Shown here piece after piece: positions 656 to 13,456 of a stretch of 13,456 bases of DNA. The stretch comes from Pseudomonadota bacterium (lineage in GTDB: Bacteria; Myxococcota; JACRCW01; JAFGSX01). Both the position numbers and the translations under genes were made by a program. The stretch covers positions 1-13,456 of the forward strand of contig JBDRCO010000067.1 in assembly GCA_043821645.1 (NCBI GenBank), read 5' to 3'. Under the pieces are notes generated by a model. It was not told the DNA's origin. It saw only the letters and a list, made by a program, of their open reading frames with translations, and made no database searches. Every line of letters begins with the position of its first letter. Within the stretch, counting starts at the first letter, position 1.

Positions 656-1399
656 ATGACCGATCTGAAAAATTTTCAGTACCTGCGCGTACAACTCGAC
701 ACGAACACCCGCGTTGCCACGCTCTCCATGAACTTCGAGCGCGAGAACCGCCTGAGCCTGGCGTTGATGGCCGAGTTGCACGAGGCACTCGATGCCCTCG
801 AGTCCGACGACGGCGCGGGTGCGCTGGTGTTCACTGGAGGCGATCCCAAGTTCTTCAGTAACGGGCTGCACCTGGACTGGCTGATGCAAAAGGTGGCTGA
901 GCCCACCGCGGTGGTGGACTACCTGCAGCGCATCAACAACCTGTTCCATCGTGTCACCCTGTATCCCAAGCCCACGGTGGCGGCGCTCAACGGCCACACC
1001 TTTGCGGCTGGTGCCTTTCTGGCAGCCCACATGGACTTCCGCTTGATGCGGGAGGACCGCGGATGGGTCTGCCTGCCCGAGGTGGACATCAACATCCCGC
1101 TGCTGCCCGGCATGATCGCCATTTGCCAGGCCATCTTGCCGCCCCAGGGCTTCAGGCAGCTGTATTACACGGGCAAGCGCTTCACCGCGCCCGAGGCCAA
1201 GATACTGGGATATGTCGATCAGGTCTGCGCTGAGGCCGATCTCTTACCCACAGCCCGCTCCATGGCCGCGCTGCTGGCGCAGAAGCGCACCCGGACTTAC
1301 GCCGAGATGAAGCGGCGCATCCGGGGTGAAGTGGCACGCATCCTGGTTGAGGAAGACCCGCAGCACTTTGCCAGCACCCTCAGCCTAGCCATGGGTTAG
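656..1399 (+). CDS. enoyl-CoA hydratase/isomerase (crotonase) family protein, delta3-delta2-enoyl-CoA isomerase-like
   Basis: Motifs ENRLS, KFFSNGLHLDW, PKPTVAALNGHTFAAG, DFRLMREDRGWVCLPEVDI and TGKRFTAPEA..LGYVD; RBS GAGGAG at 646-651. Confidence 0.93.
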   Translation: MTDLKNFQYLRVQLDTNTRVATLSMNFERENRLSLALMAELHEALDALESDDGAGALVFTGGDPKFFSNGLHLDWLMQKVAEPTAVVDYLQRINNLFHRVTLYPKPTVAALNGHTFAAGAFLAAHMDFRLMREDRGWVCLPEVDINIPLLPGMIAICQAILPPQGFRQLYYTGKRFTAPEAKILGYVDQVCAEADLLPTARSMAALLAQKRTRTYAEMKRRIRGEVARILVEEDPQHFASTLSLAMG

Positions 1400-1986: not shown

Positions 1987-2694
1987 ATGAGCAGGCGGGA
2001 CAACGGACAACACAGATGCAGGCAGTGTGCGATGCACTTGAGTCTGTGTATCTGTGCCGAGGTGCCAAGTCTCACCACGGCGAGCAAGCTCTGTCTGGTG
2101 ATGCATCGAGATGAACTTCTCAAGACGACCAACACCGGGCGATTGGCCGCGCGCTGCCTGCAGGGAAGCGAGATCCTCGTCCACGGTCGTGTCGGTGAGC
2201 GCGTCGCAGCACCGGCGCAGATCGGCGGTCGGAGCCTGCGCGAATTGCTGCTTTTCCCCTGTGCTCAGGCCGAACCCCTTGGGCCCCAGCATGCGGAGAG
2301 TGGACCGGTGCGCCTGGTTGTGCCCGATGGTACCTGGCGCCAAGCGACCAAGATGACGCGGCGCCTCGAGTGGATGGCCGCCCTTCCTCGTGTGACATTG
2401 GCCGCAGGCGCGTTGACGCGCTATCGGTTGCGCTCGGAACCAAAGGAGGGGGGGCTTTCCACGATCGAAGCCATCGCTCGCGCTTTTGCGGTGCTGGAGG
2501 GCACCTGGGTCGAAGAGAAGCTGCAGGATGTCTTTAGAAAAATGACCGACCGCACGCTCTACAGTCGAGGGCTCTTGGCCAGGCAGCATGTCTTTGGCGG
2601 TGTGCCCAGCGACGCGCAGAGCCAGGACCCGAATCGCGTGAGTGTTCGAGGCGGCTGGGGCTGCCGAGACGACAGGTCAGGGACGTCGCTGTAG
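1987..2694 (+). CDS. tapT: DTW domain-containing tRNA-uridine aminocarboxypropyltransferase (TapT/YfiP-like)
   Basis: N-terminal RC-x2-C-x6-C-x-C, H-x2-E-x2-K-T-TNTGRL, LLFP, PDGTWRQA (DTW motif), YRLR and LSTIEA. Confidence 0.88.
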   Translation: MSRRDNGQHRCRQCAMHLSLCICAEVPSLTTASKLCLVMHRDELLKTTNTGRLAARCLQGSEILVHGRVGERVAAPAQIGGRSLRELLLFPCAQAEPLGPQHAESGPVRLVVPDGTWRQATKMTRRLEWMAALPRVTLAAGALTRYRLRSEPKEGGLSTIEAIARAFAVLEGTWVEEKLQDVFRKMTDRTLYSRGLLARQHVFGGVPSDAQSQDPNRVSVRGGWGCRDDRSGTSL

Positions 2695-2714
2695 GTCGCC
2701 TACTGAGGGGCACT

Positions 2715-2765
2715 CCAAGGAGGTGCCCGAAACTTGGGCACCTTCCGCGGGATCGAGATCCTTGG
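2715..2765. terminator. GC-rich stem-loop(s) between convergent genes
   Basis: AGGTGCCC (2721-2728) / GGGCACCT (2736-2743) hairpin, enclosed by CCAAGG (2715-2720) / CCTTGG (2760-2765). No U-tract, so terminator function is uncertain. Confidence 0.35.
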
Positions 2766-2780
2766 TGGGCCCTAGGTGAG

Positions 2781-2822
2781 TGGTATTGCTGGACAGGTAT
2801 TTGGCTGGCACCTACTCGGGGC
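2781..2822 (-). repeat. dispersed repeat family, partial copy A
   Basis: Minus strand GCCCCgagtaGGTGCCAGCCAAATACCTgtccagcaatacca; the 17-mer core at 2795-2811 is identical to copies B, C and D. Confidence 0.85.
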
Positions 2823-2849
2823 ACCTCCGAGAGGGGTATTGGGACCGTC

Positions 2850-3584
2850 TCAAGGCGCCCTGAGCCTCTCCAGCAGCAGCTCCAGATCCGCGGCGGAGCC
2901 TGGGCTGAGGATGAAGCTCCGCTTGCCGACCGAACTCTCGACCATCACCTGGGTCGTGCCCAGCGCCCGATCGGCGACATGGTACGCGGTGGCCGCCTCC
3001 AGGGCATGCACCAGACTCCACAGCTCGCGGACCTGCACGACAGACAAGGTGCCCGCAGCCGGCTCACCTCCCGAGTAGCTGCCACTGGAGCTCGTCTCCG
3101 GCGTCACCGGCGCGTACCGCCAGCGCGCGGCCGAGGCGCCGACGTCCATCGTTGCCGTCGTGGTGTTGCCACTGCCGTCGCTGACGTGCACCGTCCACGG
3201 ACCCGTCTCCGGCCCGGCGTCGACGAGTGACCACGTCGCGTCGTCCAGCCACCACTCGGGCATGCTGTCCATGGCAACCCCTTGCGACCAGGCGCCGTCG
3301 GCGTCCTGGCTGGCGCGAGGCACACGAGCCGCCTGCACCAGCCGCCCTTCGACGCGGACCACACGCCCCTCGACGCCGGTCGGCCACGAGGAGAAACCCG
3401 AGATGTGGATCACGCGGCCGTCCTCGGCCAAGAGGACCGCGCTCGCCTTGCTGTTGCGAGCGACGCCGTCAATTGCCTCGGTCACCGGCTGTGTGGGCTG
3501 CATCGTGTTCACCTCCCTCGCAACTCCGTGGGTGGAACCGGCGCAGGCGACGAGGAACAGGAGGGCGAATAGTATGGCCTTCAT
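2850..3584 (-). CDS. hypothetical lipoprotein
   Basis: MKAILFALLFLVAC is a signal peptide II with lipobox; RBS GCAGGAG upstream; high-GC3 codon usage. No family recognised. Confidence 0.75.
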   Translation of the reverse strand: MKAILFALLFLVACAGSTHGVAREVNTMQPTQPVTEAIDGVARNSKASAVLLAEDGRVIHISGFSSWPTGVEGRVVRVEGRLVQAARVPRASQDADGAWSQGVAMDSMPEWWLDDATWSLVDAGPETGPWTVHVSDGSGNTTTATMDVGASAARWRYAPVTPETSSSGSYSGGEPAAGTLSVVQVRELWSLVHALEAATAYHVADRALGTTQVMVESSVGKRSFILSPGSAADLELLLERLRAP

Positions 3585-3856
3585 CGGATCTCCTGCGGTG
3601 TGGAGGAACCATAGACGGGATCCCCCTTTGCGCCCATTCCCACGTCACGCTCTTCGCAGACGACTCGGAGAGGGGGCTCCGGTTCAGCTCAGGTGATGTA
3701 CCGGGAGGTGAGAGATGGATTTCTACCGGTCAAACAAAATGTGCGTGCAGCACGACGCCTAGCTGCAAGGAAACGAAGCCCCATTACTGGAAATCGACCG
3801 TCAAGTGCGGATCGATGTACAGGTCGTACAGACTGCCGGGAAGGTGCTGCAGGGAA

Positions 3857-3895
3857 GGTGCCAGCCACCTGTGCCGGGGCCACCTGTGCCGGGGC
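3857..3895 (+). repeat. short repeat motif GGTGCCAGCCACC followed by a perfect 15-bp tandem duplication
   Basis: GGTGCCAGCCA matches the 5' motif of the dispersed repeat; GCCACCTGTGCCGGG occurs at 3864-3878 and 3879-3893. Confidence 0.75.
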
Positions 3896-3899
3896 AGTC

Positions 3900-4346
3900 A
3901 TGGCTCTGGTGCCGGCGGCGGACGACGTCAAGCTGAAAGCCACCACGCAGAGGAGCTACGACTGCAGCGTCCGCAACCTGGCGCGCACGTACTACCAGGT
4001 GTGGCGGGCCATCTCGGCCGAGCCGGGCTGGATCGATGCCGAGGTGCCGTATTACCTGGGCGCAGCCGACCGCGGCACGGTGGACGCGCTTGGCCCGGAC
4101 CTCGACCTGTACCACGACGTGCTGGGCACATCGGCGCAGAACTCGGGAGGCCACGACCCCTACCACGTGCGCTCGGCCACCATGTGGTGGCTGCGCCGCT
4201 CCCATGACAAGACAGCGACCATATGGCTCGAGGGACTCGAGCGCCTGCTGCGCACCTACGACGCCAGGTGGCTCGGCACCGAGCAGTCCAAACCGCCGCA
4301 CAAGCCACCCCGGCGCCAGCACTCGGCAGAACCAGAGTACCGGTGA
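3900..4346 (+). CDS. hypothetical protein, probably a 5'-truncated gene fragment
   Basis: Strong GC3 bias and protein-like sequence (YYQVW...WWLRRSHD...GLERLLRTYDARWL) begin only at about 3894-3900. The 3693-3893 extension is lower in GC and includes the tandem duplication. No clear RBS before ATG 3900. Confidence 0.55.
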   Translation: MALVPAADDVKLKATTQRSYDCSVRNLARTYYQVWRAISAEPGWIDAEVPYYLGAADRGTVDALGPDLDLYHDVLGTSAQNSGGHDPYHVRSATMWWLRRSHDKTATIWLEGLERLLRTYDARWLGTEQSKPPHKPPRRQHSAEPEYR

Positions 4347-4350
4347 GACC

Positions 4351-4458
4351 GCCCCAGGGTACGTGCCAGCCAAATACCTATCCAGTAGTACCAGGTCGTT
4401 ACGGAAGGCTCTGTCCCCTGCCTGATAGGGAAGGCTCTGTACCCTGCTCTACCTGCTC
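4351..4458 (+). repeat. dispersed repeat family, full copy B plus duplicated 3' motif
   Basis: 4351-4421 matches 12196-12266 at 64/71 nt; a second GGAAGGCTCTGTACCCTGCTCTAC begins at 4429. Confidence 0.92.
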
Positions 4459-4517
4459 GATAACACAGCATAAGTTCGCGCCGAGGTCGTCGGCGGGAGG
4501 CGGTAACCCCCCAATCA

Positions 4518-4571
4518 GGTGCCAGCCAAATACCTATTCAGTAATACTAAGTATTTACAGAAGGCTCTGCC
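4518..4571 (+). repeat. dispersed repeat family, copy C
   Basis: GGTGCCAGCCAAATACCTattcagtaatactAAGTATTTacaGAAGGCTCTG, colinear with copies B and D. Confidence 0.9.
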
Positions 4572-4706
4572 GCAAGTTACCGCAATAACTAGTAAATTTA
4601 TTCGACCACGGCATGCCCGTACGGGCTGTGCACTGGTTGTTCATACTATTTGTATGTGTTACGAACTCTCATCGAAAATTGAGCAGCTACTCGTTTGATG
4701 GAGCGC

Positions 4707-4721
4707 TGGGCGAAGCCTTGC
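4707..4721 (+). promoter_or_regulatory. possible sigma54 (-24/-12) promoter for the lipoprotein operon
   Basis: TGG-gcgaagcc-TTGC has GG-N10-GC spacing about 35 nt upstream of ATG 4757, downstream of an AT-rich stretch. The CACG part of the consensus is absent. Confidence 0.25.
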
Positions 4722-4756
4722 GGATTGCGCAACGCTCCTCCGAAAGGTTCTTGCCC

Positions 4757-7420
4757 ATGAAACCTCGCATTTACCTCTCGGCCTTCATCCTCACTCCGTT
4801 TCTACTCCTGGGATTCGGAGGCTGCTCCTGCGGTGGACCGACCGAGGAAGACGGCGGCAGCTCCTCCAAGTCCGACTCAGGACCGGACGACGACGCAACC
4901 ACCGCCACGGACGCCAGCCCTCAACTGGACTCGGCCACGGACCCGGACTCGGCCACGGGCCCGGACTCGGCCACGGGCCCGGACACGGCCACGGGCCCGG
5001 ACACGGCATCGAACCCGGACGCGGCCATCGACGAGGACGGCAGCACCTCGCCCGATGCCGCCCCGACCTGTCTCGCCACCTGCGTGGTCTACGTGGACAA
5101 CAGCGTGGCCACCCCTGGCGACGGCCTCACCCCGGCCACGGCGCTGCACGATGTCCAGACCGGCATCGACGCGGCCATTGCCCTGGCCCCCGATCCCTGT
5201 ACCTGCGAGGTGCGGGTGGCCATGGGCACCTACAACGTCCTGGTCAACGACGCCGAGGACACCATCCTGCTGGCACCGCGGGTGCAGCTCAACGGCGGGT
5301 TTGACAACGGCTTTGCCGGTGCAGCGGATCCAAACCAGTTCGAGACCATCCTGGATGGCCGCTCCTTTGGCGCCGGCTCCGATGATGCCGGGTTCGAGGA
5401 CGTCGGGTCCGAGGACGGTGGCACGGAGGCCACCAGAGTGTTCCACGTCGTCACCGGCGCCGAAAACGCGGGCATCGACGGCTTCACCATCACCGGTGGC
5501 AGCGCGGTCGACGACGCCGACCCGCAAAACCCCAACAACTACGGCGGTGGCATGTACAGCGCGGGCGTCTCACCCAGCATCACCCGCTGCACCTTTGTCG
5601 GCAATACCGCCGTGTGGGGCGGCGGCATGTACAACGGAGCCAATGTCTCGGAGGTCACCCACTGCGCCTTTTACGACAACGCCGCGACCGAGGGCGGTGG
5701 CGGCGTGGCCAACCGCGGCTCGCAGGCGGTCTTCACCGACTGCGCGTTCGAGGGCAACACGGCCGTTTCTGGCGGCGCCGTGTTCAACGGGGCGTCGAGC
5801 GCACCCGAGTTCGGGCAGACCGGCGCGGACCTGGGCCTCATCCGGCTCAACAGCGCCGAGTACGGCGGCGGCATGCACAACGAGGCCGGCGCCTTCCCCA
5901 CCATCACCGACGTCAGGTTCGTGAGCAACACCGCGTCCCACTCGGGCGGCGGCATGCACAACGTGGAGGACGCCAGCCCGATCCTGACCGGCGTGGTCTT
6001 CGCCAGCAACACGGCCACCCACTCCGGCGGCGGCATGTACAACAACGCCGCGGCCCCGGTGATGAGCGCCACCCTGTTCAGCGCCAACTCGGCGGAGAAC
6101 GGCGGGGGCCTCTACAACGACTCCGTGGCCGACCTGGTGCTGAGTGCGGTGGTCGTGGCCAACAACACCACCACGAGCCACGGCGCAGGTCTGTTCAACA
6201 CGGGCACCACGCTCGAGCTGTTCGAGTGCGATGTCGACGCCAACGTGGCCATGGGCAACGGTGGCGGCGTCTACAACGTGAGCGGCACCGCGATCATCGT
6301 CACCAGCGGGACGGTGCAGCACAACGCGGCGGTCAACGGCGGAGGCGTGCTCATCGGCGGGGGCACCTCCATGACCAGCGCCAGCGCCACCTACAGCCAC
6401 AACACCAGCACAAATCAAACCCCCGCCGTCGACGGCGGGGGCGGCGCCATCCGCAACCACGGCACCCTCACCATGTACGGAGACCTGATCGCCGACAACA
6501 GGGCCTACATGCTCGGAGCCGGTGTGTACAACGGGGACGCGACCGCCACCCTCACCGATGTCAGGTTTGTCGACAACAGCGCACACGATGGCGTCACCGG
6601 ACATGGAGGTTACGGCGGCGGCATGTACAACAAGAAGGGCCACGTCACCGTCACCAACAGCCTGTTCCACAGCAATCAGTCCGATCTCCAGGGAGGCGCC
6701 ATCAGGAGCTCGTACGACCGGACCGAGCCAGAGGTGGTGACGCTGGTCGTCGAGGACTGCATCTTCACGGACAACGAATCCAACCGCGGTGGAGCGATCG
6801 CGACGGATACCAGCACTCCCACGATCCGCGATTCGATATTCAACGGCAATCTGGGCTACGCCGGCGGCGGCGCCCTGTTCATCGCCGGGTTTGACTACTC
6901 GACCTTTGAGAACTGCATGTTCGTCAACAATTTTGCCCCGGAAGGAGGAGCGGTCCAGCTCTGGAGCGGCTACTACAACCCGACCTTTGTCAACTGCACC
7001 TTCTACTCCAACGAGGGCACGAGCGCCGGCGGGGTCTTCCACTACGTGGTCGAGAACCCTGTGTATCATCCCTACTCGGACCTCACCGTGATCAACTCCA
7101 TCCTCTGGGGTAACAGGTCTCCCTCGTCGGACGTGATGAGGAGGCAGATCCATAAGGGGAGCACAGAGGTCAGCTCCATCACCTACAGCGATGTGCAGGG
7201 AGGGTGCACCACGGCCAACGGCTGCACCACCGACCAGACCGGCAACCGCAATCAGGATCCCCTGCTTTTGCCGGTCGGCAGCGACGGCGTCTATGAGCTG
7301 GGGCCGAACTCGCCGTGCCTCAACGTGGGCAACGACGGCGCCATGGACACCCCCACCGATCTGCTCGGCAACCCGCGCAAGAACGGCGTCGTGGACCTGG
7401 GCGCGGTCGAGAGGCAGTAA
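4757..7420 (+). CDS. lipoprotein with right-handed beta-helix (chlamydial Pmp-like GG[A/G] + FxxN repeats) and C-terminal choice-of-anchor-Q-like segment, 887 aa
   Basis: Start reassigned to ATG 4757 (RBS GAAAGG; MKPRIYLSAFILTPFLLLGFGGC lipobox). N-cap VYVD..GDG..TA..VQ..ID..VAMGTY, many F-x2-N-x-A-x2-GGG(M/V/L)YN repeats, and C-terminal LGPNSPCLNVG..TDLLGNPR..VDLGAVE. Confidence 0.88.
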   Translation: MKPRIYLSAFILTPFLLLGFGGCSCGGPTEEDGGSSSKSDSGPDDDATTATDASPQLDSATDPDSATGPDSATGPDTATGPDTASNPDAAIDEDGSTSPDAAPTCLATCVVYVDNSVATPGDGLTPATALHDVQTGIDAAIALAPDPCTCEVRVAMGTYNVLVNDAEDTILLAPRVQLNGGFDNGFAGAADPNQFETILDGRSFGAGSDDAGFEDVGSEDGGTEATRVFHVVTGAENAGIDGFTITGGSAVDDADPQNPNNYGGGMYSAGVSPSITRCTFVGNTAVWGGGMYNGANVSEVTHCAFYDNAATEGGGGVANRGSQAVFTDCAFEGNTAVSGGAVFNGASSAPEFGQTGADLGLIRLNSAEYGGGMHNEAGAFPTITDVRFVSNTASHSGGGMHNVEDASPILTGVVFASNTATHSGGGMYNNAAAPVMSATLFSANSAENGGGLYNDSVADLVLSAVVVANNTTTSHGAGLFNTGTTLELFECDVDANVAMGNGGGVYNVSGTAIIVTSGTVQHNAAVNGGGVLIGGGTSMTSASATYSHNTSTNQTPAVDGGGGAIRNHGTLTMYGDLIADNRAYMLGAGVYNGDATATLTDVRFVDNSAHDGVTGHGGYGGGMYNKKGHVTVTNSLFHSNQSDLQGGAIRSSYDRTEPEVVTLVVEDCIFTDNESNRGGAIATDTSTPTIRDSIFNGNLGYAGGGALFIAGFDYSTFENCMFVNNFAPEGGAVQLWSGYYNPTFVNCTFYSNEGTSAGGVFHYVVENPVYHPYSDLTVINSILWGNRSPSSDVMRRQIHKGSTEVSSITYSDVQGGCTTANGCTTDQTGNRNQDPLLLPVGSDGVYELGPNSPCLNVGNDGAMDTPTDLLGNPRKNGVVDLGAVERQ
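4927..5026 (+). repeat. intragenic 18-bp tandem repeat (~5.5 units, PD[S/T]ATG linker)
   Basis: GGAC(T/A)CGGCCACGG(G/A)CCC units start at 4927, 4945, 4963 and 4981, with degenerate units at 4999 and 5017. Confidence 0.92.
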
Positions 7421-7432
7421 GGAGCATCCATC

Positions 7433-10400
7433 ATGAAGACCAAACACCGGTTTTCGACGCTTTTCCTCGCCCTGCCCCTGCTGGTGGGCGGCTGCCCCGA
7501 TCCCGACACCGGCGAGGATGGAGGCTCCAAGCCGAAAAACGACGCTGCCACCGGCGCGGATCACACGGGCGTGGATCACACGGGCGCGGATCACACCGGC
7601 GAGGATGTGGACATCGAGATCACGGGCTACACCTGCGTCAAGGATCTCGACCTGCTCGCCGAGCACCGGGCCTGCAGCCTCGACGTGCACTGCCCCTGCG
7701 GGTCCCACTGCAGCGCGGGTCTGTGCGTGCACGAGTGCCTCGAGCACAGCGACTGCGACGGCTGGTGCGATTTCTTCGGCCGCTGCCGCGGCGCCGCCGA
7801 CACGATGTCCATCCATCCGGTGACTGGCGAGCTGCGCGGCAGGCTGCAGCTCAAGACCGCCCACCTCACGCTCATGGACGTCTCCGAGGTGCGCGAGGTG
7901 GAGCTGAGCGCGGTCCACCAGGCGCTTTCAGACGTCCGCGTGGTGGCCAGCGAGGGGTTGCTGGTCAGGTGCGCGAGTGAGTTCGTCAGGGAGTGTCTCC
8001 TGCCCTCGGTCGCGGCCGACGGGCAGAGGGTCACGGTCTCGGTGAAGCCCGAGGCGACCAGCACGAGAGACGAGTGGCATGTGAGCTTCCACCACGACGA
8101 CCAGGTGGAGAGTGTGCACATTACCAAGATCATGCCACCGAGCGCCCATTTCCCGCAGCCCGGTGTCTACGTAGGCCAGATCTGGTTGAGCAGCGCGGAA
8201 GCCCTGCTGCAGGGCAACGACCCCTATGTGCGGGCGCCGCTGGCATCGGGGTTCAGCATGCTCAACCTGCCGCTGCAGCTGAAGGTGTACAGCGACGGCA
8301 CCGTGGCCTTCACGGATCTCTTCAAGGACACCATCGAGGACCACGCGGGCATCCTCCCTGAGCACCTGGTGTTCACGCTGCGCGCCAACGGCACGTTCGA
8401 CGCCATCAGCGAGGAGGTGGATCGCTCTCCCCAGGTCTACCTCGGCGGAGCCACCGCGGTCGACGACGAGGCCGCGGTCGAGGTGGTGATCTCGGCGCAC
8501 GGCGAGATGCGCTCCGTCGACGACGGCGTCTCCGGAACCCTGGGAGTGCGGATGGGCGGCTTCGGCCCGCTGTACGACCCGACCCTGGCCATCGACGAGC
8601 GGCTCAAGGTGTCGTGGGGCTTCACGGCAACGCGGACCGGCGACATCCAGGCCGGTGACAACCCGCCCCCGCTGGGCGGCGGCCAGGCGCCGGTCTTCGG
8701 TGAGTACGCGGACCGCGTCGACCACGCGGCGCCGTGGGAGGCCGAGATCGAGAACTCCGGGGCCGGCAACCTGGGCGGCGCGGACCAGGCTGAGGCAGTG
8801 CAGCGCTGGCTCTGTTACAGCCACCCCTCTGACTTCACGTCGGTATCGCTATCCATCAACACCGCTGACCTGACCGCGATGCAAGACCTCAAGTGCGACG
8901 ATGTGGACCTCAGGCCCACGGTCTTCCCCCTGTTTACCAACCTGGATCGCACTGTGTCCCTGACGACCCAGCAGGCCCTGGGGGGGTGCATGGAGGAGCT
9001 CGCCTTCGTGGCCAGCGATCCACCCAGCACGATGCAGACCGGGGCAGCCCTGCTCGACGCCATGTCCGGCTGTGGAGAGACCAACGGCTGCAACGACGCG
9101 AACGAGATGCCCACCTGCATCGACGGGCCGCTGGCGCTGTACAGCGCGGTCCTGGGCATGGAATCCATCGCACCCCGCGCCGATCGGCTCTACTGGACGG
9201 TCGCGTCCGATCTCGGCGCCAAGCTGGGGCTCAGGGCCCTGCAGCAGTGGATCCAGACCCACACCTTTGTAGTCCGCGAAACGGCGCAGGGCGTGGATCG
9301 TCTCCTGGGCGGCAACCCCAACGATCTGGAGACCGCCCTCGACACCGGCCTCAACGGCTGGGACCTGATGCTGCACCCCAAGGTGGGGGCGCGCCTGCTG
9401 CACGTCCCGCCGGCGCTGCTGGCCGAGCCCGACTACCGCGACGTCGTCACCCTGCCCGAAGCCATGAACCGCGACAACACCCAGCCCGTGGGCCTGCCGG
9501 TGGTCATGTTGGACGGCCTCACCGCCCAGCTCGAGGCGGCCTCGCGGCTGATCGTCCAGGCGCGGTACCAGTCCGGGTCCTCGCTGCCCAGCCAGGTGGC
9601 GCGCTCCCTGCGCTACGCGTCGATCCTGGCCCCCATCGCCCAGATGCTGCACACCCGGGCCACCGAGCACGGCCAGCTGGCGTGGGAGGAGCTGTGGGTC
9701 GCGTCCCAGGACGACTTCGCCGAGGAGCTGGGCCGGGTGATGCGCGAGTGGCGCGCCTACCTGACCGGGGAGAACCCGCTCGGCATCGACGACGAGGACC
9801 TGCCCCTGTACCGCGGCCTGATCAATCCCGACGCGGCTGGCATGCGCTTCTCGGCCATCTCCAGCTACCTGATCGAGAACTGGGCCACGGACGCCGTGGC
9901 CACAGCCCGCGACGCCAAGACCGCGGCCGACACTGCCTGGACCGCCCTGCTCGAGCGCCAGCTGCAGATGGCGGCCCAGGACCAGGGCGAGGACAGGGCA
10001 GAGGCGATCCAGCGCCAGTACGGCGAGAAGATCCTCAACATGTGCGGCAACCCGCTGGGGCTGGTCGACGCCAAGGATGTCTTCGATCCGGGCCGATGGG
10101 TGGGTCAGAACTCCCAGAACTGCTTCCTCAACCAGGCCAACCCGAGCTGCGTCTACGACGAGCAGGCCATCGCCGACGCCCTGACCGCCGACGACGTCAT
10201 GTACCACATGTGCGTGGTGGCCGAGCTGAACAATCGCCTGGGCGACAAAGCCCAGCTCTCCGACGCGGAGCTCAACGCCCAGATCCGTGAGATGCAGGAC
10301 GTGCTCGGCAACCTCCAGCAGCCGGAATCCGTGGACTGGTGGTTGGGGGTCTTCGACCCCGGGTTGGTGGAGATCGCGATCGACCTGGCCAACCAGATCA

Positions 10401-12166
10401 GGGACCCCGAGGGCGGCCGCGGAATGACCGACCTGTGGACCCTTGACCGCTTCTCGTACTCTGGGATCGAGGACGAGCGGGCGTTCTTCAATGCCAGGCA
10501 GGAGTGCGGCTCGCTGTTGCCCAACGGCGGCTTCGTGACCGACAAGTTGGAGCCGATCGACCACCCCGATTGCTACCAGGGCGCCTTGGGCGAGCTTGTG
10601 CTGGCGGCGCGCGCCGCGCGCAAGGACATCGAGGTCGCCTCCAGCGAGATCCAGGACCTCACCGACGCTTACGAGAACGCCGTGCACCAATGCATCATCA
10701 TCGACGAGGGGATCGAGTTCTCCGAACATGTCTCGGCGCAGCTGGGCGCGATCTCGGGCAAATTGGAAACCTATCTGGGGGGAGTTCAGTTTGCATGCGA
10801 TGTGAGCAGCGTGACGATGGGAGGTATCTTGTCGGCCGCGAGCACCGCGCTGGCCATGCCGGACAGCGGTTTGGCGTCCGTCTTCGACTTCGTCTCCGGC
10901 AAGACCCTGGAGTCCATGTCAAACGCGATGGGGCTCGGGGAAGTCCAGCAACTTCACGCCGACTTCCTGGCCGAGCACCAGCGGGAGATCGCCAACACCC
11001 TGTGCTTCAACGACGCCGAGATGCACCTGGTCAGCGCCGACACCCAGACCAAGCGGCTCGAGCGCGCCAAGATCGATCTGGCCCAGGCTGTCCTCAAGCT
11101 GCGCAACGGGCAGCAGGAGCTCAGGCGCCTGATCATCGAGGGCCGCAACCGCTCCAAGGCCGAGGCCGGCCGCGCCCGGGCGTCGCTGTTCAACGACATC
11201 TGGAGCGACCTGTGGGCCGGCGACCGGGCCACCTTCGAGGGCAAGGTCGAGGACTACCGCGAGGCCATGCGCATCGCCCAGCGCATCATGTACCTGACCG
11301 TGCGCGCCGTGGAGTACGAGTGGCAGGTGACCCGGCAGGACAGGGCCGACGTGCTCGCCGCCACCACGCCCGACGACCTGGCCGCGGTGCTGCTGCAGTT
11401 GAAGACCGATGTGGGCACCGGCAACATCGGCGGCCAGAGCCCGGAGAACCTGCACGTGGTGCTGCGCCTGCGCGACCACCTGCTGCAGCTGGAGGACCGC
11501 TCGGAGTGGCCCGCGGGGCAGCACACCATGTCCGATGTCCAGCGCTTCCAGGCCCTGCTCACCTCGGAGCGGTTTGCCGAGTACGGCGACGACGGGAGTT
11601 ACGCTGGGCAGCGGATACCATTCTCCCTGGCGCCGCTCGGGATCATCGAGCTGGGCGATCCCGGGTCGATCCCGGTGCTCACCGGCTCGGACTGCGCTGA
11701 GCGACTCTGGTCTGTCAACGCCTCCATCCTCGGGGACGAGATCTCCAGCGGTGAGTCGACCTACACCAGGATCGACCTGCGCCACAGCAACACCTTCTAT
11801 AGCCAGTGGTGTCACCGACCGGCCGCCGACGAGCCGCCCTTCCTGAGCGCCTCGACCCGGCCATCGCGCAACCTGTTCAAGGATCCGATCTGGGGCGGCG
11901 GTTACGGCAGCAACAACAACGACGAGAGCGAGTACGTGCGCGCCCGCATCCAGGCCTATTTCAACGTCGCGACCGGCGAGATGGAGCAGGAGAGCTACTC
12001 GCAGGGGTCGTCCGAGGAGCTGGCCTGCCGGGCGCTGTACGGCGAATACGCCCTGTTCTTCCCGGCCGAGTACCTGGACATCAACGGCAGCGGCGGCCTG
12101 CGCCTGCACAACGTCGAGGACATCCTGCTCAGGTTCGACTACGTCTCCGCGGCCAAGCACTACTGA
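7433..12166 (+). CDS. large Cys-rich lipoprotein (1577 aa) with coiled-coil C-terminal half, putatively Tc toxin A-subunit-like
   Basis: RBS TAAGGAG overlaps the upstream stop. MKTKHRFSTLFLALPLLVGGC lipobox; Cys-rich block CSLDVHCPCGSHCSAGLCVHECLEHSDCDGWCDFFGRC; long helical region; C-terminus RALYGEYALFF...LHNVEDILLRFDYVS. The gene is well supported, but the TcA-like assignment is inference. Confidence 0.8.
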   Translation: MKTKHRFSTLFLALPLLVGGCPDPDTGEDGGSKPKNDAATGADHTGVDHTGADHTGEDVDIEITGYTCVKDLDLLAEHRACSLDVHCPCGSHCSAGLCVHECLEHSDCDGWCDFFGRCRGAADTMSIHPVTGELRGRLQLKTAHLTLMDVSEVREVELSAVHQALSDVRVVASEGLLVRCASEFVRECLLPSVAADGQRVTVSVKPEATSTRDEWHVSFHHDDQVESVHITKIMPPSAHFPQPGVYVGQIWLSSAEALLQGNDPYVRAPLASGFSMLNLPLQLKVYSDGTVAFTDLFKDTIEDHAGILPEHLVFTLRANGTFDAISEEVDRSPQVYLGGATAVDDEAAVEVVISAHGEMRSVDDGVSGTLGVRMGGFGPLYDPTLAIDERLKVSWGFTATRTGDIQAGDNPPPLGGGQAPVFGEYADRVDHAAPWEAEIENSGAGNLGGADQAEAVQRWLCYSHPSDFTSVSLSINTADLTAMQDLKCDDVDLRPTVFPLFTNLDRTVSLTTQQALGGCMEELAFVASDPPSTMQTGAALLDAMSGCGETNGCNDANEMPTCIDGPLALYSAVLGMESIAPRADRLYWTVASDLGAKLGLRALQQWIQTHTFVVRETAQGVDRLLGGNPNDLETALDTGLNGWDLMLHPKVGARLLHVPPALLAEPDYRDVVTLPEAMNRDNTQPVGLPVVMLDGLTAQLEAASRLIVQARYQSGSSLPSQVARSLRYASILAPIAQMLHTRATEHGQLAWEELWVASQDDFAEELGRVMREWRAYLTGENPLGIDDEDLPLYRGLINPDAAGMRFSAISSYLIENWATDAVATARDAKTAADTAWTALLERQLQMAAQDQGEDRAEAIQRQYGEKILNMCGNPLGLVDAKDVFDPGRWVGQNSQNCFLNQANPSCVYDEQAIADALTADDVMYHMCVVAELNNRLGDKAQLSDAELNAQIREMQDVLGNLQQPESVDWWLGVFDPGLVEIAIDLANQIRDPEGGRGMTDLWTLDRFSYSGIEDERAFFNARQECGSLLPNGGFVTDKLEPIDHPDCYQGALGELVLAARAARKDIEVASSEIQDLTDAYENAVHQCIIIDEGIEFSEHVSAQLGAISGKLETYLGGVQFACDVSSVTMGGILSAASTALAMPDSGLASVFDFVSGKTLESMSNAMGLGEVQQLHADFLAEHQREIANTLCFNDAEMHLVSADTQTKRLERAKIDLAQAVLKLRNGQQELRRLIIEGRNRSKAEAGRARASLFNDIWSDLWAGDRATFEGKVEDYREAMRIAQRIMYLTVRAVEYEWQVTRQDRADVLAATTPDDLAAVLLQLKTDVGTGNIGGQSPENLHVVLRLRDHLLQLEDRSEWPAGQHTMSDVQRFQALLTSERFAEYGDDGSYAGQRIPFSLAPLGIIELGDPGSIPVLTGSDCAERLWSVNASILGDEISSGESTYTRIDLRHSNTFYSQWCHRPAADEPPFLSASTRPSRNLFKDPIWGGGYGSNNNDESEYVRARIQAYFNVATGEMEQESYSQGSSEELACRALYGEYALFFPAEYLDINGSGGLRLHNVEDILLRFDYVSAAKHY
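7550..7606 (+). repeat. intragenic 15-bp tandem repeat (TG[A/V]DH x3 plus partial unit)
   Basis: AC(C/G)GGCG(C/T)GGATCAC at 7550, 7565 and 7580; partial unit at 7595. Confidence 0.9.
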
Positions 12167-12195
12167 GCTCGTCGCCGCTGGCGTCAACCGCCGTC

Positions 12196-12289
12196 GCCCC
12201 AGGGTGGGTGCCAGCCAAATACCTATCCAATAACACCAGGTACTTACGGAAGGCTCTGTCCCCTGCTCTACTGCTCTCTCTGCTCTCTC
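12196..12289 (+). repeat. dispersed repeat family, full copy D plus CTGCTCT micro-duplications
   Basis: GCCCCAGGGTGGGTGCCAGCCAAATACCT...GGAAGGCTCTGTCCCCTGCTCTA-CTGCTCTCT-CTGCTCTCT fills most of the gap between two convergent stop codons. Confidence 0.92.
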
Positions 12290-13049
12290 AGTCCTGACTG
12301 GCGCTCCAGGCTCCTTCGCCCATGCACCCGGTCGGGAAGGTCGAGTTGCCGCACCAGCTCCCATTGCTGAAGCTGGTGCCGGAGCGCGTGCCTCTCAGGG
12401 CCACCTTGAACGCCATGCCCAGGCTGCCGCACTGGAATCCTGCATCCACCGGAGCGCCGTCCTCGGCCGCCCCTGCGTCCTCGCTGGGCACGCTGAAGCA
12501 CAAGTAGGCCGGGTCAACGATCATCTCGATCTGGCTGGTCAGCGCATCGAAGCTGCCGACGATCTGCCCCTCGAAGGGATAGCCTCCCTGGGCCACACCG
12601 CGCATCACTCCGCTCACCCACAGCTTGTCGCCGGCACAGCCGATCTCGAAGATCATGGCGCCGGAACTCGTCATGTCGAAGGGTCCGGTGAAGATCGTGT
12701 CGCCGAACACCCGGCCCTGCCAGTAACCCGAGAAGCTGCCCGTGAGGTCCGCCAACTCGTCGGGACAGGTCGCACCACCCGCGTCCTCATCGACGGTGTG
12801 GGGTGGGATGTCGGGGTAGGTGCAGACGAAGCCGGCGTCACCGGCGTCATCCAGCGCATCGCCGGCACTGGCATCGGCAACCAGGCTGTCGGGGCTGACA
12901 CTGCGATCGCCGATGACGCGATCGCTCACAGCCCCGTCGCGGATCTCCGCGCCATCGGGCGAGGTCGGCTCGAGACCGCACTGGCAGCTCGCGCCAGCAG
13001 CGAGCAGACCGACCAGACAGATATTCACCAGAGCACGCGGCACGGCCAT
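12288..13049 (-). CDS. hypothetical Cys-containing lipoprotein, 253 aa
   Basis: Start reassigned to ATG 13049: MAVPRALVNICLVGLLAAGASC(QC) lipobox, DAG-rich linker, then a beta-rich Gly/aromatic domain. The upstream ORF extension overlaps IS DNA. Confidence 0.78.
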   Translation of the reverse strand: MAVPRALVNICLVGLLAAGASCQCGLEPTSPDGAEIRDGAVSDRVIGDRSVSPDSLVADASAGDALDDAGDAGFVCTYPDIPPHTVDEDAGGATCPDELADLTGSFSGYWQGRVFGDTIFTGPFDMTSSGAMIFEIGCAGDKLWVSGVMRGVAQGGYPFEGQIVGSFDALTSQIEMIVDPAYLCFSVPSEDAGAAEDGAPVDAGFQCGSLGMAFKVALRGTRSGTSFSNGSWCGNSTFPTGCMGEGAWSASQD

Positions 13050-13094
13050 CCCGATATTATGTCCATCCCTGGCCGGGGCGGAAACAGAGAAAGA

Positions 13095-13110
13095 GAAGGC
13101 TCTGTCCCCT
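13095..13110 (+). repeat. dispersed repeat family, isolated 3' motif (copy E)
   Basis: GAAGGCTCTGTCCCCT, a 16/16 match to copies B and D. Confidence 0.8.
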
Positions 13111-13123
13111 CCTCTTTTCAGGG

Positions 13124-13456
13124 GGAAGCGCGAGCAGGCGTTCGAGCCCATGCACGTCAAGGCGTGACGACGGAGATTGCAGGTCACCGCGGAGCCCAAG
13201 GTGAGCCGTCGGAGGTCATCAAGAGGGTGGAGTGCGGCAGGTGCCATGGCGGGGCAACCGTGCCGATTGGGTGATGGCACCCACCCTTCGAATACCATTC
13301 TGTGCCCGGGCATCCAGGCCCGACCAAGAGCACGTATCGATGGCTGAGGAGACGCTCTCGACGACGACACCGGGGATCCGCTGAACAAGTTTGGAGGTCA
13401 GGCCGGGGAGACACAGAACACAACGATAGCCCGGGCGAGGTCAGGCTGTGCTTGAC
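13124..13456 (+). mobile_element. IS110/IS1111 3' remnant: last transposase codons plus long downstream non-coding end
   Basis: KREQAFEPMHVKA* (stop 13165-13167) resembles the IS110 C-terminal W-x4/5-F-x-P tail. 13419-13456 matches the right end of the 1504-1881 element (34/38). Ends in TTGAC, an outward-facing -35 box. Confidence 0.75.
13223..13345 (+). ncRNA. candidate bridge RNA / seekRNA (target- and donor-binding loops)
   Basis: Stem GAGGGTGG/CCACCCTT encloses an internal loop and a GCAA-tetraloop hairpin; a second domain has a CGGGC/GCCCG hairpin. Loops contain matches to the inferred target (CAGGTGCCA) and donor junction (TATCGATG). Boundaries are approximate. Confidence 0.6.

Follow-up and report, generated by a model that had tools for sequence, protein, structure and literature searches.

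The DNA analysed here, called the window throughout, is an entire contig (C67) of 13,456 bp from a metagenome-assembled genome (7.07 Mb in 140 contigs, 94.7% complete, 3.95% contamination; G000) whose owner is an uncultured myxobacterium, probably from groundwater. Our subject is the protein P0001, encoded by an open reading frame (ORF) at 7433-12166 on the forward strand which, read directly from the window, is open throughout and specifies 1577 amino acids (aa); DNA contigs of run X1 span the gene with no indels inside it. P0001 begins with a lipoprotein signal, and its C-terminal ~530 residues are predicted, from a structural model, to form a long hairpin of helices, apolar and poorly ordered at its tip, and after it a beta domain of the TcB-binding type, as in the A subunit (TcA) of Tc toxins. 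The layout of the protein along the window is as follows.

7433-7495, + strand: lipoprotein signal peptide; lipobox LVGGC at nucleotides (nt) 7481-7495, lipidated residue Cys21
7496-7630, + strand: acidic low-complexity tether with DHTG repeats, residues 22-66; predicted local distance difference test score (pLDDT) below 50 at protein residues 55-66
7634-7786, + strand: Cys-rich module, residues 68-118; ten invariant cysteines (C68, C81, C87, C89, C93, C98, C102, C108, C112, C118)
7829-8134, + strand: PapD/ASH/MSP-like Ig beta-sandwich, residues 133-234
8141-8641, + strand: second beta-sandwich or barrel, residues 237-403; strands at residues 190-349 of the N-terminal model
8732-9763, + strand: helical region with small beta elements, residues 434-777; candidate reduced shell
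9764-9835, + strand: segment GENPLGIDDEDLPLYRGL..., residues 778-801, irregular and highly conserved; model residues 9-32 lack regular secondary structure
9839-10579, + strand: helical region ahead of the hairpin, residues 803-1049; helices at model residues 39-259
10580-11170, + strand: channel-like helical hairpin, residues 1050-1246, with descending helices, tip and ascending helices; model helices 281-322, 328-370, 379-413 and 417-477
10811-10900, + strand: apolar Gly/Ala/Ser-rich tip, residues 1127-1156; model residues 369-396 with pLDDT below 50
11438-12151, + strand: C-terminal beta domain, residues 1336-1573, predicted to fold like the TcB-binding domain of TcA; one of the best-conserved regions in the family

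The motifs on which the original prediction, made from the sequence alone, was founded all lie where it had placed them in this intact frame: GENPLG at residue 779 (nt 9767), LPLY at 790, ARKDIEVASS... at 1062, VTMGGILSAAS... at 1127 (nt 10811), TKRLERAKIDL... at 1206, YLTVRAVEYEW at 1287 (nt 11291), GEYALFF at 1537 and, in the end region of the protein, LHNVEDILLRFDYVS at 1558.

Judged by its lipobox, P0001 is a signal peptidase II (SPII) lipoprotein, extracytoplasmic and lipid-anchored. Cys21 is invariant in all 12 aligned close homologues, as are most of the 31 cysteines of the protein, comprising the ten of the Cys-rich module and further pairs along the chain; the description of P0001 as lipid-anchored and Cys-rich, also part of the original prediction, thus stands. 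Across the family, a strict PROSITE-like lipobox pattern is present in 41 of the 60 proteins of at least 1300 aa, and most of the remaining 19, inspected by eye, are truncated at the N-terminus or have a lipobox in which Pro stands at -2. Searched against PDB profiles, the Cys-rich module returned a single match, a knottin (squash trypsin inhibitor) at a non-significant E of 0.34. Cys1087 and Cys1191 (C318 and C422 of the C-terminal model) are invariant in 35/35 sequences and sit on opposite arms of the hairpin, roughly equidistant from the turn, making a disulfide staple between the modelled arms plausible.

The structural case for a TcA-like build comes from an AlphaFold2 model of residues 770-1577, computed from a 35-sequence alignment (mean pLDDT 78, about 90 in the last domain and below 50 at the hairpin tip; predicted template modelling score (pTM) 0.52). 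The model runs in order through helices, a long hairpin (model residues 281-370 descending and 379-477 ascending), connecting helices and a beta domain (567-805). In a Foldseek search of the PDB, ranks 1-22 were all TcA chains (TcdA1, TcdA4, XptA1, XptA2, TcaA-TcaB and YenA2; E 1.8e-7 to 2.7e-4, probability 1.00), followed at rank 23 by the TcB-binding fragment of TcdA1 (E 9.7e-3), with the first non-Tc protein at E 0.044. TcA chains likewise took ranks 1-17 in the VIA structure search and ranks 1-2 in a Foldseek-independent search, and among the matches shown they were the sole PDB entries to match the hairpin and the beta domain together and in the same order. A TcA-like C-terminal architecture, the central claim of the original prediction, is therefore borne out at the level of the model, which contains the hairpin and draws TcA as its first match. 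In VIA, about 514 residues of TcdA1 (2003-2516) correspond to the 808 residues of the model, indicating that the helical region at residues 803-1049 is longer than its TcdA1 counterpart. A search of ESM Atlas features, taken as a lead only, gave 21 of 30 named matches to clusters with some members carrying PF18276, the Pfam TcA TcB-binding domain (score 0.93; 86% and 13% in the two clusters shown).

Two elements of the module deserve closer description. The apolar tip is flanked by the conserved anchors AYENAVHQC and CFNDAEMH, between which all 35 aligned family members have 103-150 residues of variable, apolar and often G/A/S-rich sequence. The irregular segment at residues 778-801, with N781, P782, L783, G784, D789, L790, P791, L792 and Y793 invariant, occupies the position where the TcA linker meets the pore domain; its ~24 residues are about half the 47-49 of the TcdA1 and YenA2 linkers. 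In VIA, model residue 18 aligns with residue 854 of YenA2, whose linker is placed at residues 813-861 in the available text of PMC6486591. A four-copy complex prediction of residues 1330-1577 scored 0.01, which is no answer and counts neither for nor against oligomerisation.

The N-terminal half was modelled separately (residues 55-790; pLDDT 87.2, pTM 0.77) and comprises the Cys-rich module, the PapD-like Ig domain, the second beta-sandwich and the helical region. Its best Foldseek matches are Bacteroides DUF1735 or SusE/F-like surface proteins (E 6e-6 to 5e-4; 3nqk at E 6e-6, and 4qni). Other proteins carry the same C-terminal module behind different fronts: P0067 of Persicimonas caeni (3055 aa) places it after cadherin-like, Big, FG-GAP-like and CshA repeats, and P0068 (3735 aa) after laminin-G domains. 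This exchange of N-terminal domains fits a modular front that would serve as a targeting part ahead of a conserved, putatively membrane-active part.

P0001 belongs to a large, Myxococcota-wide and undescribed family that standard domain searches miss; no publication on a lipid-anchored TcA-like family was found, judged by titles and the first lines of abstracts. A collection of 5.8 billion proteins yielded 64 homologues at E <= 0.001 (959-2006 aa), all unnamed or labelled hypothetical except for one "EB domain-containing" label, and those with a taxon label come from Myxococcota/Deltaproteobacteria lineages (Polyangia, Myxococcales, Bradymonadia, Persicimonas caeni). Among 185,579 species, represented by one genome each, there were 108 relatives, of which 80 stretches were kept as related loci; these derive from Myxococcota-type lineages or unclassified bins, several genomes having two to five copies. 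Lineages represented in the family are Polyangia, Haliangium, Kofleriaceae, Sandaracinaceae, Myxococcaceae, Archangium, Bradymonadales, Persicimonas and Microvenator. Some of the organisms with a family member are in culture, among them Persicimonas caeni (FIV42_02705, P0050). Residues 1050-1577 were matched in 32 of 201 evenly sampled Myxococcota genomes, a set that includes the unpublished genome G195 here and in the tallies below. The genome of the window itself has a second copy on contig C139, a 1771-aa protein 42% identical to P0001 over the C-terminal third. At that locus (L012; C139:5271-13084) two more genes lie downstream of the paralogue in the same orientation, one for a secreted protein of 827 aa that carries thrombospondin type 3 repeats and one for a GH16-domain protein.

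The second line of evidence is gene context. In 11 of the 201 genomes, a match to TcdB_midN, a domain of TcB-TcC (BC) proteins, has a family member on the same strand no more than about 3 kb upstream. Ten linked loci were fetched, in which the BC gene comes directly after an A-like gene encoding 1244-1829 aa; the lipobox of the A-like protein is readable in L093-L096, L098 and L100-L102, while the start of L097 is unclear and the L099 gene is in pieces. The complete BC fusions have 2008-2149 aa and, by eye, signal peptides (the BC ORF of L099 has 1428 aa, and the BC of L101 is cut by the contig end). All five that were scanned contain SpvB, FG-GAP, TcdB_midN and RHS, one of them ending in Ntox43 and one in PT-HINT. 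P0001 aligns with one BC-linked member over residues 684-1572 (E 3e-55) and again at the N-terminus (E 3e-11), the whole build being common to both. The A-like frame beside the BC gene of L099 (G052:C20) is split into open frames of 615 and 685 aa and is possibly a decayed copy.

Linkage was compared with a tree of the family. A tblastn search of 90 loci with five BC proteins as queries placed a BC gene within 8 kb in 8/8 distant, deep-branching loci and in 0/52 loci of the closer group whose downstream sequence reaches 4 kb or more; 30 loci, the window included, are too short to judge. L100 and L101 are deep-branching and BC-linked as well. The tree was built from 89 C-terminal regions (one of 90 rows, shorter than 450 aa, was dropped, and L100 and L101 were left out) and rooted at the midpoint. 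Six BC-linked rows form one clade (support 100), two more sit on long branches joining each other in a join flagged as unsafe, and the 79 unlinked rows all fall to the same side of a branch (support 83); the root, being a midpoint only, does not tell loss of linkage from gain. The window falls in an 11-row clade (support 100) that lost BC linkage or never had it and has an upstream beta-helix lipoprotein instead. No A-BC fusion was seen among proteins of 2761-5000 aa, where the two matches both have adhesin-type N-termini, although this is weak evidence.

No BC gene lies next to P0001 in the window, where 1293 nt follow its stop codon. Elsewhere in the genome there is exactly one TcB-type protein (PF12256, PF03534), a 2106-aa BC fusion on contig C118 containing SpvB, FG-GAP, TcdB_midN and RHS, with a signal peptide, by eye, after an internal Met. 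The original prediction of a protein lacking TcB and TcC is accordingly true of the window and too broad for the genome and the family, given this fusion on another contig and the distant members linked directly to BC genes. Immediately downstream of the C118 fusion is a 2061-aa lipoprotein without Pfam domains that ends ...TRWELVL...MTDIRLYLYYTD and has an hhalign match to the P0001 family (probability 89.7%, E 1.8e-6) that covers the ascending channel helix together with the front half of the end domain; the genome therefore holds three A-like lipoproteins and one TcB-type cocoon. The 2061-aa protein was considered as a paralogue of P0001 and rejected, its BLASTP similarity being confined to the Cys-rich module (E 0.002), and is better placed in a separate, more distant A-like lineage; against canonical TcAs it gave E 0.47 in hhalign. 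The full arrangement there (L011; C118:54998-71163, minus strand) is the BC fusion, the A-like lipoprotein with its W-E-L...D-I-R-L-Y-L-Y-Y-T end, and a 995-aa lipoprotein that belongs to no known family. Of the sampled genomes, those with the closest two relatives, G051 (49% identity) and G061 (45%), are 93-94% complete and have RHS-core proteins but gave no match to SpvB or TcdB_midN; G046 and G020, also 93-94% complete, gave no SpvB, TcdB_midN or Rhs core match. These absences, in the genomes searched, favour a role without a TcB-type partner.

The immediate surroundings of P0001 on its 5' side are these.

4613-7420, + strand: upstream gene P0002, 935 aa as the longest ORF; a lipoprotein with polymorphic-membrane-protein (PMP; right-handed beta-helix) repeats
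7419-7424, + strand: Shine-Dalgarno sequence AAGGAG, overlapping the TAA of P0002 (7418-7420), 8 nt before the ATG at 7433

P0002 and P0001 are probably co-transcribed. The RNA library X10 contributed a single 151-nt contig of depth 2 on 9113-9257, too little for an expression call and possibly DNA carry-over. P0002 matches Pfam Chlam_PMP (E 1.1e-8) and TIGR01376; its lipobox, GFGGC, sits near residue 70 of the longest ORF, which therefore begins too early, the likely start being Met49 (nt 4757). After the lipobox the tether of P0002 contains tandem DSATGP/DTATGP-type repeats. By tblastn, a P0002-like PMP/beta-helix lipoprotein is directly upstream in 8 of the 9 relatives in the clade of the window that have upstream flank, and P0002 relatives occupy this position in 8/80 related loci, all within that 11-row clade; the partner at L014 matches Pfam Beta_helix at E 1.6e-22. 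Other clades have other upstream lipoproteins, including a ~700-aa family without Pfam domains (about 15 loci) and MopE-motif proteins (two). An abutting same-strand ORF of at least 300 aa is present upstream in 30/51 loci with at least 2.5 kb of upstream sequence, some of these ORFs being spurious, and such a neighbour is not universal.

Beyond P0001 and P0002, no ORF of the window, the downstream one included, has a relative in the 80 related loci. The downstream ORF is convergent (12288-13388, minus strand); translation probably begins inside the long ORF, at its Met114, ahead of a lipobox (...LLAAGASC) and an acidic tether, so that the product would be a small lipoprotein of ~250 aa with no Pfam match. 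An enoyl-CoA hydratase family protein is encoded at 656-1399 (+ strand). Between 1400 and 4600 there are long ORFs on both strands without a Pfam or NCBIfam match, and the signal of G+C at third codon positions (GC3) is strong at 2600-3600 (0.80) and weak on either side, at 1400-2600 and at 3600-4612. The probable source run, a groundwater metagenome, holds 0.96 of sampled words, and two runs from one biofilm-metagenome sample of another study hold 0.37-0.39 (window 4400-13456, runs X1-X3). Pieces from biofilm run X2 are 95-100% identical to the window, 19/27 of them at 99% or more, indicating that the organism or a very close strain occurs elsewhere.

Taking predicted structure and gene context together, we consider P0001 to be most likely a lipoprotein that forms a pore or serves translocation, related very remotely to the Tc A subunit, which in its own clade would act as a pore former or conduit, probably against microbes. 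It would be exported, lipidated at Cys21 and disulfide-bonded outside the cytoplasm. Lys at +2 is the inner-membrane retention signal of the lipoprotein sorting rule, and since P0001 has no Lys there it would be sorted to the outer membrane. It may then oligomerise as TcA does, the hairpins forming a central channel and the C-terminal domains a funnel, with the N-terminal Ig and beta-sandwich part binding the target and the apolar tip entering the target membrane. Within the clade of the window, the likelier roles are those of a stand-alone pore or of a conduit used by some partner that is not a linked BC; docking of the single unlinked BC fusion of the genome seems less likely than either. 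Microbial targets, whether prey or non-kin, are to be expected rather than insects because the linked BC proteins carry interbacterial polymorphic-toxin ends (Ntox43, PT-HINT). A bolder form of this proposal, which we hold only tentatively and think rather unlikely, is that BC-unlinked members are shell-less, lipid-anchored channels acting on contact, either killing alone or offering a shared docking port for cocooned toxins encoded elsewhere; if true, it would describe a Sec-exported, membrane-tethered antibacterial Tc machine in Myxococcota and the missing delivery route for YD-shell toxins.

The points that weigh against this interpretation begin with sequence comparison. P0001 has no Pfam or NCBIfam match at E <= 0.01 and no PDB sequence match at E <= 10 by phmmer, does not reach the 25-bit cut-off of PF18276 (TcA_TcB_BD), for which there is no match anywhere in its genome, and a profile of the family found nothing relevant in the PDB. 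Even at E <= 10, none of ten C-terminal domains (from P0001, relatives and the 2061-aa A-like protein) matched any Pfam entry, PF18276 included. Comparison of the family with eight canonical myxobacterial TcAs by hhalign gave a probability of 1.1% and E 0.049, aligning only the last strand motif, in which P0001 ...ALFFPAE...VEDILLRFDYV is set on canonical ...WRLELP...DVVLHVRYT. The shared strand motif that had been proposed does exist in canonical myxobacterial TcAs, where ...W-R-L-E-L-P...DVVLHxRYTA marks the end of the PF18276 match with ~190 residues following, and it falls in the same place in the alignment, but that alignment is without significance; kinship with TcA rests for this reason on predicted structure and gene context and not on sequence statistics. 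On the structural side, global TM-scores from Foldseek are only 0.18-0.22 with large root-mean-square deviations, the pTM of the C-terminal model is 0.52 and its tip is poorly modelled. The N-terminal model gave no TcA-shell or neuraminidase-like match among the matches shown by Foldseek, VIA or VIA-wide, its helical parts not having been searched separately, and a prepore shell with spring-driven injection is consequently not supported for P0001. The downstream context is also short, the contig ending 1293 nt past the stop. The lack of a sequence-level signal would suit a structural surface or envelope lipoprotein (an adhesin, a matrix component or an envelope-spanning strut) built of Ig domains, coiled helices and a jelly-roll-like end domain, its likeness to TcA being convergent or too remote to matter. 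Long helical hairpins do give high background Z, the N-terminal half resembles adhesin and glycan-binding surface proteins, and adhesin-like neighbours accompany both P0001 (the PMP/beta-helix protein) and its paralogue (the TSP_3 repeat protein). We nonetheless judge this account very improbable, as two successive domains match TcA in order, the end domain is matched by TcA alone among the matches shown, and family members as close to P0001 as E 3e-55 stand in A-then-BC order in at least 10 genomes, which is hard to square with convergence.

A further consideration on the opposing side is that the TcB-binding-like domain is among the most conserved parts even in BC-unlinked members, suggesting that some partner, or ring formation itself, is under selection and that something still docks there. 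P0001 might on this basis be a spare or alternative A subunit working in trans with the C118 BC fusion or with other cocoon-type toxins, its C-terminal domain retained to dock a beta-propeller. That domain is also among the most confidently modelled parts, the genome does encode a BC fusion with a signal peptide by eye, and canonical TcAs accept foreign BC partners, according to the available portion of PMC6795518. TcdB_midN, moreover, is present in 23/32 family-positive as against 54/169 family-negative genomes, figures that count against a partnerless role yet are no test of association because the genomes are related and 11 of the 23 are linked cases. The C118 fusion, however, is already accompanied by an A-like lipoprotein encoded next to it, the closest sampled relatives come from genomes that gave no match to SpvB or TcdB_midN, two other genomes gave no Rhs core either, and no BC lies within 8 kb in any of the 52 unlinked-group loci, leaving the in-trans arrangement rather unlikely. 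A quite different possibility is that P0001 sits in the periplasm-facing leaflet of the outer membrane, from which outer-membrane exchange would hand it to sibling cells as it does SitA, the hairpin then piercing the inner membrane of the recipient in kin discrimination and not predation. The lipoprotein signal without a retention Lys at +2 is compatible with such a route, the linked BC proteins are Sec-exported and bear interbacterial toxin domains, and myxobacterial lipoprotein toxins are delivered in this way (PMC5562445, PMC8546572, in the text available). Against it, P0001 has no immunity-like conserved neighbour, the small lipoprotein downstream being without a relative in the 80 loci, and the family extends to Bradymonadales, Persicimonas and Microvenator. 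We know of no outer-membrane exchange in any of these three groups, and we regard the proposal as improbable. The preferred reading thus remains a lipid-anchored pore or translocation protein of remote TcA kinship.

What the analysis adds is a predicted channel-plus-funnel design in a large, Pfam-missed family of lipid-anchored, Cys-rich proteins from Myxococcota, many of which are predators; some members pair with signal-peptide BC fusions bearing interbacterial toxin ends and most stand without BC. If true, this would extend the Tc family to forms that are antibacterial and tethered to the envelope, reveal what a minimal functional A subunit looks like and account for the "orphan" B/C genes of domain-based Tc surveys.

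Tc toxins are soluble complexes of ~1.7 MDa from insect and human pathogens and occur mostly in Gamma- and Betaproteobacteria; canonical TcA has no signal peptide, is produced in the cytoplasm and leaves the cell by lysis. The structurally characterised TcAs (Photorhabdus TcdA1, PDB 4o9y, 5lki and 6rw6; TcdA4; Xenorhabdus XptA1/2; Yersinia TcaA-TcaB; YenA2) share with P0001 the long hairpin with apolar tip and the TcB-binding-fold beta domain in the same order, as predicted for P0001, together with variable beta-sandwich domains in front; P0001 has a conserved irregular segment at the position where the TcA linker joins the pore domain, and distant members of the P0001 family, like TcA, are encoded upstream of TcB-TcC genes. 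P0001 differs in its lipoprotein signal, its many conserved cysteines, the absence of detectable sequence similarity and of a linked BC in its clade, its phylum, its length (1577 aa against ~2500), its candidate linker of ~24 residues in place of 47-49 and the lack of a shell or neuraminidase-like match. We think that P0001 works like the A part of a Tc toxin, even though it fails the PF18276 sequence test and has no recognisable shell. Leidreiter et al. 2019 (PMC6795518, in the part available) count the linker, the channel, the TcB-binding domain and a trefoil knot as the conserved core of TcA and the outer beta domains as variable. For the part of the shell in which the knot lies, P0001 shows no recognised counterpart. 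A survey of 133,722 genomes, in which TcA was sought by PSI-BLAST from Photorhabdus, assigned 96.4% of TcC to Proteobacteria (mostly gamma and beta) and 3.2% to Firmicutes, and the word Deltaproteobacteria is absent from its main text as available (Song et al. 2021, PMC7861908).

Within the phylum, canonical TcAs recognised by PF18276 occur in 10/201 Myxococcota genomes, compared with 32/201 for the P0001 family. Both have a W/F-x-L...D-[IV]-[IVL]-L-x3-Y strand motif ending the TcB-binding domain, whereas the canonical proteins match PF18276 at E 1e-50 to 1e-119 and their frames reach 2700-4000 aa, continuing ~190 residues past the match. Eight canonical loci (L103-L110) come from G183, G186, G082, G193, G104, G012, G067 and G151. 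G183 has both kinds, a canonical TcA beside one BC (C766) and a lipoprotein-type A-like protein beside another (C299). ClyA-type and tripartite alpha-pore-forming toxins (AhlB, SmhB, HblL1, MakA, PaxB) match the helical part of P0001 only, at the background level for helical proteins, and have neither an equivalent of the C-terminal beta domain nor a BC context. SitA toxins are, like P0001, myxobacterial lipoproteins, used against other cells with the lipid anchor in the delivery route (PMC5562445, PMC8546572, in the text available), but P0001 has no C-terminal enzymatic toxin domain or conserved immunity neighbour that we could find and, in the model, is built as a channel and not as an effector.

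The own genome also encodes cocoon-type proteins on other contigs: one teneurin-like lipoprotein (C43), which has TTR, NHL and YD-shell domains, and three DUF6531-RHS proteins (1854-2476 aa), one of which includes a right-handed beta-helix region; Rhs-core matches number eight in total. The teneurin-like and RHS loci (L115-L118) are C43:17971-24618, C31:24936-31532 and 83759-89320, and C68:2340-9767. Teneurin-like YD-shell lipoproteins resemble P0001 in their occurrence in Myxococcota, their SPII signal and their place in the world of cocooned polymorphic toxins (Nat Commun 2026, PMC13018210, as far as available), and differ in being relatives of the cocoon, on the B/C side, and not of the channel. 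The same source, in its available text, describes no obvious delivery machinery for the myxobacterial YD-shell lipoproteins, and a lipid-anchored TcA-like channel of the kind proposed here would, if true, be a candidate delivery route for them.

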